A stretch of DNA of 7,760 nt from Candidatus Odinarchaeota archaeon (GTDB lineage: Archaea; Asgardarchaeota; Odinarchaeia; Odinarchaeales; Odinarchaeaceae), in the NCBI GenBank assembly GCA_038826135.1, contig JAWBON010000054.1, positions 1-7,760 of the forward strand, in the 5' to 3' direction. Below, piece after piece: positions 355 through 2,713 of this stretch. Numbering within the stretch: the stretch's first letter is position 1; every line of letters begins with the position of its first letter. The notes beneath the pieces were generated by a model that saw only the letters and a list, made by a program, of their open reading frames with translations, made no database searches and was not told the DNA's origin. Both the position numbers and the translations under genes were made by a program.

Positions 355-1182
355 ATGCCGCTTCACGGAACTGCTAATAATATAGTTAAAAAACTAGTAG
401 AACTGGGTTTCACAGCGTATGAAGCTAAAGTATACTTAGTTCTCTCCACAGAAGGTTCACTCAACCCTACAGAGATAGCTGATAAATCCGGTGTTCCTAG
501 ACCAAACGTGTACCGTGTTCTGGAAAAACTGGAAGCTGAAGGATACGCTAGGCGGGAAGCTGTTCCAAGAGGTGCAAGATACTTAGCAGTAAGCCCTGAA
601 GAGGTGGCTGAGAAAATAGAGCAGCGACTTAAAGATAAAGAAATAGCGGTTAAAGAGCTAAAAACACTCATCACAGAGATTAAGCCAGCTGAAATAGTAA
701 GCGCTAGCGAAACAATGTGGCTTGTCAACGGTGTTGAAGAAATAAAAAAGCTAGTAGAAAAATCAATAGTTAAATCAGAAAGAGAGCTGATAATCCTATC
801 TCCACCTCTATTCGGACAGGAAACAGTTGAAGAGAAAAAAATCTTTTTAGAAAAACTGATTAAGAGAGTGAACATGGGCTTGAATTTAATAATAGGGTGG
901 CCTATAAACAGAGATGATATCCATATAGCTAAGGAACTTATGAATAAAGCCACCGTCTATCATTGGAGCCTCGGCGAGGTCCCGATGGGGATATACTGCT
1001 CTGACGGTAAGGAGTGTTTAATAACTTTTATAGGTAAGTGGGCTCCTTTAATAAGCTATGATTTAGGACTTTGGATAAGAAACCCTATATATGTGAAACC
1101 CATAGAGTATTTAGCCAGTAAATTATTAACGATCACAAAACCTGCTGAGGAGCGAATAAATGAACTAATGGGGGAACAATAA
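355..1182 (+). CDS. TrmB-family transcriptional regulator (N-terminal winged HTH plus C-terminal effector-binding-type domain)
   Basis: LVELGFTAYEAKVYLVL...EIADKSGVPRPNVYRVLEKLEAEGY is the TrmB HTH signature. It is followed by a coiled linker and WLVNGVEEIKKLVEKSIVKSERELIILSP, typical of the start of the TrmB C-terminal domain. Confidence 0.88.
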   Translation: MPLHGTANNIVKKLVELGFTAYEAKVYLVLSTEGSLNPTEIADKSGVPRPNVYRVLEKLEAEGYARREAVPRGARYLAVSPEEVAEKIEQRLKDKEIAVKELKTLITEIKPAEIVSASETMWLVNGVEEIKKLVEKSIVKSERELIILSPPLFGQETVEEKKIFLEKLIKRVNMGLNLIIGWPINRDDIHIAKELMNKATVYHWSLGEVPMGIYCSDGKECLITFIGKWAPLISYDLGLWIRNPIYVKPIEYLASKLLTITKPAEERINELMGEQ

Positions 1183-1183
1183 T

Positions 1184-1705
1184 TTGAGTAAAAAATACGT
1201 GTTTAAACTGGTAGTTTTAGGAGATGAAAGAGTAGGGAAAACATCCCTAATATTCAGGTACACTGAGAGAAGATTCCTAGGCGACTATAAACCTACAATC
1301 GGAATTGATTTCTCAGCTAAACTTGTAGAGGTAGGTAAATATAATGTTGACCTCATTATCTGGGACCTAGGTGGACAGGAGAAATACCGGATTTTAAGAA
1401 AACACTATCTGGAAGGCGCTAGAGGCGCCATTCTAGTATTCGACCTAACAAACAGGCAGTCATTTGAGCACCTGAACAGCTGGTACAATGACCTACAACA
1501 AAACTGCAGCGGGGTACCATCCATCCTCGTCGGTAATAAAGCAGATTTAACAGCTGATCGAAAAGTATCACCTGAAGAGGGTAGGAGAAAAGCAGAGGAG
1601 CTTGGAATAAAATACGTAGAGTGCTCAGCCAAGGATGGAACAGACGTTGACGACGCTTTCAAAAACATCACTCAGCAGATGATAGATAAATACGTAACAG
1701 GCTGA
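1184..1705 (+). CDS. Rab/Ras-like small GTPase (eukaryotic-signature-type), TTG start
   Basis: G1 GDERVGKT, G2/RabF1-like YKPTIGIDF, G3 WDLGGQE, G4 NKAD and G5 CSAK are all present. No C-terminal Cys prenylation motif. TTG lies 1 nt after the trmB TAA, with GGGGGA at 1170-1175 upstream. Confidence 0.93.
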   Translation: MSKKYVFKLVVLGDERVGKTSLIFRYTERRFLGDYKPTIGIDFSAKLVEVGKYNVDLIIWDLGGQEKYRILRKHYLEGARGAILVFDLTNRQSFEHLNSWYNDLQQNCSGVPSILVGNKADLTADRKVSPEEGRRKAEELGIKYVECSAKDGTDVDDAFKNITQQMIDKYVTG

Positions 1706-1716
1706 CTTAAAAATAT

Positions 1717-1872
1717 TCAACGATTAACAGGAAACTCATGCCCGCACTGAGGGCATTTACAATAGCCGCAGTCACCTAAAGATCTACTAGGACATGCACC
1801 GCAAGCAAACACCCTAGCATACGATATATCAAACGAGAAACCGCAATTAGGGCATTTAACCAATCCAGCCAT
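1717..1872 (-). CDS. Unannotated 51-aa Cys-rich microprotein (four CxxC pairs; putative double Zn or Fe-S binder)
   Basis: Hand translation of the minus strand: MAGLVKCPNCGFSFDISYARVFACGACPSRSLGDCGYCKCPQCGHEFPVNR* (ATG 1872-1870, TGA 1719-1717). A GTGAT SD-like motif at 1884-1880 lies 7 nt upstream. An alternative in-frame ATG is at 1881. Absent from the ORF track. Confidence 0.85.
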   Translation of the reverse strand: MAGLVKCPNCGFSFDISYARVFACGACPSRSLGDCGYCKCPQCGHEFPVNR

Positions 1873-2095
1873 ACAAACCATCACACTTTAAGCAAAAAAT
1901 CATTTCGCACGTATCTTTTTAAATTTAACCCTTAGCTGTTAAAACCCATTTGGAAACATAGCTAAGCCCAAATAAGATAAAAAAAGACTAATTACCCAAA
2001 AAACCTGCTCCTGTAAAAAGGTAAAACCATAAATAGCCGCTGGGAAAAATAATCAATATAAACTGTGAATAAAACCCCTGGTAAGATGAATAATA

Positions 2096-2713
2096 ATGGA
2101 GATTAAAGGATACATTATTCTAAAAGGAAACATATACCCCGCCGCCGAAATACTGAAAGCCATCGCTAATAACCCACATATAAAAATTTCTTTAACTAGT
2201 AGCGGGGAGCTGGTAATCGACAACTACAAGATTAATAAGTTAAATGAACCTCTCCCAAATATAGTTAGAAACCTCCTCTGCTTCAAAGCATTATCCTACT
2301 GCTGTTCACTAGATAAACCCTGCTCTAACAGGGATCTAGCGCTAGAACTGCTAGGTATAAGTAAAAAAACATATAAAGAGCTTAAAGAAGAACTTGAGAG
2401 AAAAATCCTAGAAAACCTTCAGAACTCTAATATCAGCGAGGAGACCGTGCCCGTTAAAGACATATTTTATAGTAGAAGCGGTTCACGCGATAGTTTAGAG
2501 GACTGGGATTTCTCACCGCTATCTAAACCTGAAAACCCTTATGAAAGTATAAAGCCAGACAGGGAAAGAGTTGAAAAGGAAGCATCCAACTTCTTCTCAG
2601 CTTTAAGCGGAGAAATAACCGCTGAAAAACAAAAAGAAATGTACTGTAAAAGATGCGGGCGAAGTATCGACGCATTTACCAGATTCTGCCCTAACTGCGG
2701 CCTACCCGTATAA
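2096..2713 (+). CDS. Hypothetical metal-binding protein: central CFxxLxYCCxxxKPC...RD motif (methanogenesis marker 9 / COG4008-like) plus C-terminal zinc ribbon
   Basis: Residues 62-105 read CFKALSYCCSLDKPCSNRDLALELLGISKKTYKELKEELERKIL. The C-terminus reads CKRCGRSIDAFTRFCPNCG (C184, C187, C198, C201). The ORF is clear; the family link is from recalled motif similarity. Confidence 0.7.
   Translation: MEIKGYIILKGNIYPAAEILKAIANNPHIKISLTSSGELVIDNYKINKLNEPLPNIVRNLLCFKALSYCCSLDKPCSNRDLALELLGISKKTYKELKEELERKILENLQNSNISEETVPVKDIFYSRSGSRDSLEDWDFSPLSKPENPYESIKPDRERVEKEASNFFSALSGEITAEKQKEMYCKRCGRSIDAFTRFCPNCGLPV

Follow-up and report, generated by a model that had tools for sequence, protein, structure and literature searches.

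The window analyzed here is the complete contig JAWBON010000054.1 (C54; 7,760 nucleotides, nt) of a Candidatus Odinarchaeota archaeon (assembly GCA_038826135.1; genome 1.26 Mb, 93% complete). Close to its 5' end, on the forward strand, lie the two genes considered in this work: one encodes a TrmB-family regulator with TrmBL2-type architecture (355–1182; 275 amino acids, aa; ATG start) and the other a Rab-like GTPase of the Ras superfamily (1184–1705; 173 aa; TTG start). Both open reading frames (ORFs) are open throughout, and they follow a promoter block (268–318) with a candidate operator palindrome. The identities agree with an original prediction made from the letters and ORFs of the window, which had called the pair a TrmB-type ligand-sensing regulator translationally coupled to a eukaryote-like Rab GTPase.

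The regulator stop codon (TAA, 1180–1182) and the GTPase start codon (TTG, 1184–1186) are separated by the one base that the prediction had given, a lone T at 1183; the junction reads CAA TAA T TTG, with CAA as codon 1177–1179. The predicted Shine-Dalgarno (SD)-like motif corresponds to the purine run GGGGG at 1170–1174, which lies within the 3' coding sequence of the regulator, 10–14 nt upstream of the TTG. In three congeners GGAGG stands in its place, and the regulator stop directly abuts the TTG start. The regulator has its own SD-like AGGAG (343–347, read from sequence), 8 nt before the ATG. The GTPase likely begins at TTG 1184 rather than at the downstream GTG 1199, because relatives with an ATG start keep the residues KKY(I/V)FK upstream of the GTG. 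Judging from this layout, the two genes almost certainly form a compact, co-transcribed unit. For 240–1760, matching sequence came from two libraries, both labelled metatranscriptomic and flagged as probably DNA. One 402-nt contig covers 937–1335 across the junction; the contig cannot show a single transcript. An Rfam search of the whole window gave no family at gathering score.

Regulator and GTPase proteins

Residues 16–82 of the regulator are a TrmB winged helix-turn-helix (wHTH; PF01978; Pfam, E = 5.6e-18, 65 bits vs. a cut-off of 25.6). The NCBIfam equivalogs for TrmB, TrmBL1 and TrmBL2 score 42–56 bits against cut-offs of 530–650, which is agreement at the family level only. The sugar-sensing TrmB/TrmBL1 equivalogs (NF040851, NF047390) reach 49–56 bits (cut-offs 600–650) and the TrmBL2 equivalog (NF041141) 41.6 bits (cut-off 530), too low to class the protein as a TrmBL2 ortholog. 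The regulator's close homologues carry the label Odinarchaeia.

An AlphaFold2 model built from 19 orthologs (predicted local distance difference test, pLDDT, 83.7) has a winged helix, a long helix (residues 81–107) and an alpha/beta domain (residues 118–266); on the DNA, the wHTH, the coiled-coil helix and the PLD-like domain occupy ~400–600, ~595–675 and ~706–1152, respectively. Among known structures the model matches TrmBL2 best, along the full length (Foldseek E = 1e-15; VIA-align Z = 17.4, 246 of 262 residues aligned). The C-terminal domain corresponds to the N-terminal, PLD-like half of the TrmB effector domain (chain residues 110–243 only; Z = 14.3, root-mean-square deviation 2.8), and it also matches the PLD-fold proteins Nuc and FAM83B. 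On the TrmB chains, the model covers residues 110–243 of 2f5t and 8–243 of 3qph, and the protein ends at its own residue 275.

Structure comparison found no counterpart in the model of TrmB residues 244–338. In TrmB, residues ~244–338 are the sugar-binding part, which TrmBL2 also lacks (PMC4158304). The HxK(x)4D motif is absent from the regulator sequence. Because nothing matches this subdomain, the description of the regulator as ‘ligand-sensing’ in the TrmB sense, and hence as sugar- or nutrient-responsive, is unsupported; the sugar-sensor reading was rejected on structure, and the idea that the pair is a forerunner of nutrient-to-GTPase signalling is likewise unsupported. The nutrient-sensor framing should be replaced by that of a TrmBL2-type regulator with ties to genes for small GTPases and longins.

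Tyr50 of P. furiosus TrmB reads DNA (PMC4158304), and its counterpart in the regulator, Y53, is invariant in the 19 orthologs. It belongs to an invariant recognition-helix core (P48, R49, N51, V52, Y53). The orthologs also share a C-terminal signature (W204-G207-E208-P210-G212-Y214-D217-C221-G227-W229-P231-W240-N243-P244, on to L257); between residues 204 and 257, in the PLD-like domain, 20 positions are invariant. The regulator is probably a sequence-specific DNA-binding protein of the TrmB family, with TrmBL2 architecture and a dimerizing coiled coil.

Residues 8–166 of the GTPase belong to the Ras family (Pfam, E = 2.1e-54), and the NCBIfam small_GTP domain model passes. All G motifs are intact, as read from the translation and an alignment: G1 (GDERVGKTS, nt 1220–1246), switch I (PTIG), G3 (WDLGGQE), G4 (GNKAD) and G5 (SAK). 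Each of the 60 best PDB sequence matches is a Rab, with Rab14 at the top (E = 6.3e-43). No C-terminal prenylation motif (CC, CxC or CaaX) is present: the protein ends in ...QQMIDKYVTG, has no cysteine among its last 25 residues, and its last cysteine is C146. Baldrarchaeial orthologs of the operon GTPase have WDIAGHE for WDLGGQE, with His replacing the catalytic Gln (loci L014, L015, L046, L017 and L047).

Conservation of the gene pair

We searched 61 related genomes with the regulator and scanned the returned loci with both proteins. At E ≤ 1e-50, orthologs were found in 15 genomes, plus one with a fragment at a contig edge. A same-strand Ras-family gene lies directly 3' of the regulator ortholog in 14 of the 15 assessable genomes; one contig ends before the GTPase position. 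Counting surveyed genomes and public contigs, the pair spans Odin-, Jord/Frey-, Baldr-, Borr- and Ranarchaeia. The regulators of these lineages share only 37–58% identity, and among the loci compared no other neighbor is conserved beyond the genus. The adjacency is far beyond chance, since the GTPase follows the ortholog across these deep lineages while the window’s own genome has just 16 Ras-family genes among ~1340 ORFs.

Within the genus the junction measures 0–1 nt; the sister family has an ATGA overlap, Baldrarchaeia a TTGA or GTG overlap, and a Borrarchaeon a gap of ~10 nt. Public contigs, which also supplied the lineage names, add an 11-nt gap in another Odinarchaeial lineage and a 14-nt gap in a Ranarchaeon. 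In Jord/Freyarchaeia the genes lie 100–240 nt apart. The predicted lack of room for a separate promoter therefore stands where the genes overlap or lie at most 14 nt apart (Odin-, Baldr-, Borr- and Ranarchaeia) and fails for Jord/Freyarchaeia.

In all five genomes tested, the window GTPase finds its best match in the copy beside the regulator. A quick tree joined the linked GTPases and one lineage-specific duplicate in a single clade (support 89); a more careful tree left the backbone unresolved and neither showed nor rejected monophyly of the regulator-linked GTPases. Both trees were built without eukaryotic sequences. No regulator-GTPase fusion occurs among the 21 relatives found (155–285 aa; search range 151–482 aa). 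The sister family has a second copy of the operon-GTPase clade (60% identity to the window GTPase; L055, genome G005, contig C4, 1492–2685, minus strand), which does not adjoin the TrmB-like gene and sits ~150 nt downstream of a gene for a 175-aa protein.

The regulator and the GTPase thus make up a conserved two-gene module that is real and apparently undescribed. The prediction had proposed a compact module and had not known the pairing as a described system. Both points hold: the junction is tight, the pair is kept well beyond the window’s genome, and we found no published description, nor any paper in our literature search joining TrmB with Asgard small GTPases. The prediction had been prepared to give up the link if the adjacency were confined to this one genome, which the survey shows it is not.

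Looser arrangements were also seen. Genomes labelled Hermodarchaeota or Lokiarchaeota have a distant TrmB-like protein (~27% identity) followed by a Ras-family GTPase. At two such loci (L021, L018) the gene order is HIT / TrmB-like (~285 aa) / GTPase / nucleotidyltransferase-like, and the paired GTPase of this type has a 15–20-residue insert after switch I. Baldrarchaeia have a second regulator paralog (37–42% identity; genome G032, C9:508880–509674; genome G049, C313:24532–25326), with no adjacent GTPase match in the searches made.

Candidate operator and putative regulon

The ~50-nt block at 268–318 is near-invariant in an alignment of four genus members, while the flanking intergenic DNA has diverged. 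It contains a perfect palindrome, TTCGTAGTT-A-AACTACGAA (271–289, 65 nt before the regulator ATG), and 3' of it the TATA-like elements ATTATAG (291–297) and TTTTTAATATTTAAAT (303–318). The palindrome core, GTAG-N5-CTAC, is a variant of TGTAG-N5-CTACA. This core also adjoins the regulator gene in the sister family (tGTAGTTAAGCTACa), in another Odinarchaeial contig and in Jord/Freyarchaeia (tGTAGCTAAGCTACa). The position of the site at the operon’s own promoter suggests autoregulation by the regulator. Baldrarchaeial upstream regions share a different element, TGTAGTAACATTTATTATCACCA, which was set aside: it is not readable as a clean palindrome, and no genome-wide search was made with it.

A search of the window’s own genome with the 19-mer (TTCGTAGT-N3-ACTACGAA, up to three mismatches) gave only the own site as an exact match, with seven loose matches against a random expectation of 6–11. 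The regulon signal emerged only with the shorter core plus consensus flanks. The total of the bare core in this genome (15) equals chance, and within it there is a sharp class of intergenic sites with the consensus ttaTGTAG-N5-CTACAtaa. Exact TGTAG-N5-CTACA occurs 7, 5, 6 and 6 times in four genus members, compared with 1, 1, 1 and 0 times for an everted control (CTACA-N5-TGTAG) and none for a backwards control. With up to one mismatch, 13 of 26 motif sites are intergenic vs. 2 of 47 for the everted control (Fisher p = 8e-6). Across the 61 genomes, the ratio of motif to everted sites is 61:21 in ortholog-bearing genomes and 64:92 in the others (p = 1e-6), an excess that comes from three related lineages only, excludes Baldrarchaeia and is therefore suggestive only. 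The motif is enriched between genes in Odinarchaeia and Freyarchaeia.

We count nine strong sites in the window’s own genome: seven exact, one with a single mismatch and the regulator’s own variant. The strong sites have a TATA-like box 17–20 nt upstream and a start codon 2–20 nt downstream, so the palindrome covers the probable transcription start. Four of the nine serve GTPase or longin genes (binomial p ~2e-5 if 2% of genes belong to those classes): a Ras-family GTPase (contig C51, ~3029), a longin-Arf-like GTPase fusion whose gene diverges from that of a photolyase (C57, ~1923), a 152-aa longin-fold protein (C31, ~10156) and the regulator-Rab operon itself (C54). A model of the 152-aa protein (pLDDT 72) matches the longin domains of VAMP7 and Sec22b as well as Ragulator subunits, and UniRef labels its homologue as longin. 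The other five precede genes for an RPE65-type carotenoid oxygenase (C92, ~2769), a GT4 glycosyltransferase, an AAA_17 kinase-like protein, a 204-aa zinc-ribbon protein (C10) and a 207-aa ORF. A homologue of a neighbouring gene of the candidate regulon is labelled Candidatus Odinarchaeum yellowstonii. With sites at the photolyase and the RPE65-type oxygenase, the operator may connect GTPase genes with genes related to light or damage.

Similar promoters carry the motif in relatives. In a congener with a complete single-contig genome (~1.4 Mb), five of the six exact sites lie at orthologous promoters, with different spacers. Every assessable intergenic site in the sister family belongs to Arf-like GTPase genes (two, one fused to a longin and one to a RING-like finger), to a longin-like gene (150 aa) or to the regulator locus, where it marks the promoter of a 103-aa gene running divergently. 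Freyarchaeial sites stand ahead of the regulator gene and of a gene for another Ras GTPase. Genes like the divergent 103-aa one (98–103 aa) are weakly conserved between two Odinarchaeial lineages (36% over 52 aa; L035, 3425–3736, and L081, 2294–2590, both minus strand), and no homologue was found in the window’s genome.

Two neighbors of the operon were also noted in the window. A 55-aa ORF (1717–1884, minus strand) with eight cysteines in CxxC pairs is convergent to the GTPase gene, with the stops 11 nt apart; it is kept at 78–80% identity in two congeners and not beyond the genus. Farther downstream, a 205-aa protein (2096–2713, plus strand) combines a methanogenesis-marker-9-like segment (TIGR03277, 39 bits, below cut-off) with a C-terminal zinc ribbon, and has weak similarity (27% over 131 aa) to the C10 zinc-ribbon protein of 204 aa, whose promoter has TGTAG-N5-CTACA.

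Interpretation and known systems

Given the established gene structure, folds and deep conservation of the pair, we read 268–1705 as a translationally coupled, bicistronic Asgard operon in which the regulator would read the palindrome, control a GTPase/longin regulon and be made together with one GTPase; we place the probability of this reading at about 0.5. A regulator dimer would sit on TGTAG-N5-CTACA, over the probable transcription start of about nine promoters, which is the position of a repressor; four of these promoters belong to the Ras GTPase, the longin-Arf GTPase fusion, the stand-alone longin and the operon itself. At its own promoter, the regulator would act through the variant site upstream of a TATA-like box (autoregulation). 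The operon would then be the control unit of a small-GTPase/longin regulon, with the Rab-like GTPase made in fixed proportion to the regulator.

The palindrome is assigned to the regulator because this is the sole transcription-factor gene consistently adjoining a site, because lineages with the motif share the recognition helix PRPNVY(R/A)V while the others differ, and because the site geometry fits TrmB-family operators; on these grounds, dimeric binding to TGTAG-N5-CTACA is proposed. Several observations weigh against the proposal. The assignment draws only on genetic linkage and on distribution among related, non-independent lineages. For five of the nine strong sites, the gene served has no evident connection to GTPases (the oxygenase, glycosyltransferase, AAA_17, zinc-ribbon and 207-aa ORF genes). 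At the operon's own promoter, the two outermost bases of the site (CGTAG...CTACG) deviate from the consensus, and its placement upstream of the TATA-like box is not that of the other sites. The sister family and one further Odinarchaeial contig have the site 220–400 nt from the regulator start, where it belongs to the promoter of the divergent 98–103-aa gene. Within 200 nt of the Baldr-, Ran- and Sifarchaeial orthologs the site is missing, and Baldrarchaeial genomes have no motif enrichment. In Sifarchaeum, a convergent membrane-protein gene, rather than a GTPase gene, lies 3' of the regulator.

Some or all of the pattern could have arisen in other ways. If the two genes were merely co-transcribed, the regulator would control the operon and perhaps other genes, and the Rab-like GTPase would be cargo that never meets it and acts elsewhere (e.g., at membranes or the cytoskeleton). 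The motif also stands at other GTPase and longin genes that have no adjoining regulator gene, so GTPases appear to be targets of the system rather than inputs; the spacer in Jord/Freyarchaeia permits independent expression, and no fusion was seen in the 21 relatives, though one of ~450 aa fell within the length range searched. Against this, overlap or abutment of stop and start has been kept in at least five deep lineages while all other neighbors changed, a persistence usual for proteins needed in fixed proportion, and the PLD-like domain, an orphan as to ligand, is strongly conserved (the 20 invariant positions noted above). We regard co-transcription without contact as somewhat unlikely. 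A more novel reading, in which the GTPase is the signal input and its GTP or GDP form docks on the PLD-like domain to switch DNA binding at TGTAG-N5-CTACA operators, seems to us unlikely. Action of the GTPase on this domain, in place of the missing sugar sensor, is the less certain part of the mechanism: it is a hypothesis suggested only by the persistent translational coupling and the orphan, highly conserved domain. A complex prediction with regulator residues 117–275, the GTPase, GTP and Mg scored 0.02 against a mark of 0.32, a result that weighs neither for nor against binding.

It is also conceivable that a different factor reads the motif, or that the motif works as an RNA hairpin at the 5' end, so that the TrmB-like gene would be simply a member of the regulon, perhaps encoding a general chromatin protein like TrmBL2. 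The closest structural relative is indeed a low-specificity chromatin protein, the motif overlaps probable transcript 5' ends and hence would be present in the RNA, and Baldrarchaeia have the gene pair without motif enrichment. Yet the regulator is the only transcription-factor gene consistently beside the site in the Odin genus, the sister family and Freyarchaeia; lineages lacking the motif have NVY(ET/DT/PS) at the recognition helix; a 5-bp, AU-rich stem would probably be unstable at hot-spring temperature; and both the ~22% identity and the equivalog score set the protein apart from TrmBL2. Another reader of the motif, or an RNA hairpin, is quite unlikely. Chance or hitch-hiking adjacency with no functional meaning is very improbable. 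Asgard genomes have many Ras-superfamily genes (16 in this 1.26-Mb genome) and some chance adjacency is expected, but order and strand are kept in 14 of 15 assessable genomes between regulators only 37–58% identical, other synteny is lost, and in every genome tested the partner GTPase comes out as the reciprocal best match.

The eukaryote-like small GTPases and longin/roadblock proteins of Asgard archaea number in the dozens, and to our knowledge almost none of them has a known partner, regulator or function. In the pair described here, a GTPase clade has a fixed gene partner in at least six Asgard lineages. This partner is a DNA-binding protein with a guessable operator, which a short list of promoters of GTPase, longin-GTPase and longin genes appears to share. 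The regulon, if it holds, would be the first defined transcriptional circuit for the ‘eukaryotic signature’ GTPases of Asgard archaea. If GTPase input were also true, a G protein would directly gate a transcription factor in charge of the cell’s small-GTPase and longin genes, closing a feedback loop from GTPase to transcription in archaeal relatives of eukaryotes.

The nearest known protein is TrmBL2 of the Thermococcales (TK0471 / PF0496; PDB 5BOX, 5BPD, 5BPI, 5BQT). It has a similar length (264 vs. 275 aa) and the same order of winged helix, long coiled-coil helix and PLD-like domain, and both proteins lack the C-terminal sugar-binding subdomain. The two differ in sequence (~22% identity, equivalog far below cut-off), and the Asgard regulator has its own conserved C-terminal signature (W204...P244). 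TrmBL2 binds DNA with little specificity as a chromatin protein (PMC4158304); it is abundant on coding and intergenic DNA and is not encoded with a GTPase. TrmB and TrmBL1 (Tgr; operators TACT-N3-AGTA and TGM, TATCAC-N5-GTGATA) share the DNA-binding domain family and the recognition-helix Tyr. Known operators of the family are palindromes of like geometry; those at the transcription start give repression, and those upstream of the TATA box give activation (PMC4158304). The candidate Asgard operator, like TGM, is an inverted repeat with an N5 spacer, and as with Tgr/TrmBL1 it lies mostly at the transcription start and, at its own promoter, upstream of a TATA-like box. Its half-site is different, its candidate regulon comprises GTPase/longin genes rather than sugar metabolism, and the C-terminal subdomain through which TrmB and TrmBL1 sense sugars is missing from the Asgard regulator.

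The GTPase resembles other Asgard Rab-like GTPases (e.g., Thor-Rab, PDB 7EZB; Tran et al. 2024, PMC10933270) in its Rab-like G domain, complete G1–G5 motifs and lack of prenylation cysteines, and differs from them in that its clade has a fixed DNA-binding gene partner. Tran et al. (2024, PMC10933270) noted that genes for Asgard GTPases as a rule do not share operons with regulators, so that their partners are difficult to assign, and speculated about control by transcription factors. As far as can be seen, the reading of a GTPase/longin regulon is new here. A further Asgard-wide operon is also built around a Rab-like GTPase, with a LAMTOR1-like Roadblock protein and DENN (Liu et al., bioRxiv 10.1101/2020.10.19.343400); its Roadblock and DENN partners are of the type of guanine nucleotide exchange factors and GTPase-activating proteins, whereas the partner in the operon described here is a winged-helix protein of the transcription-factor type.

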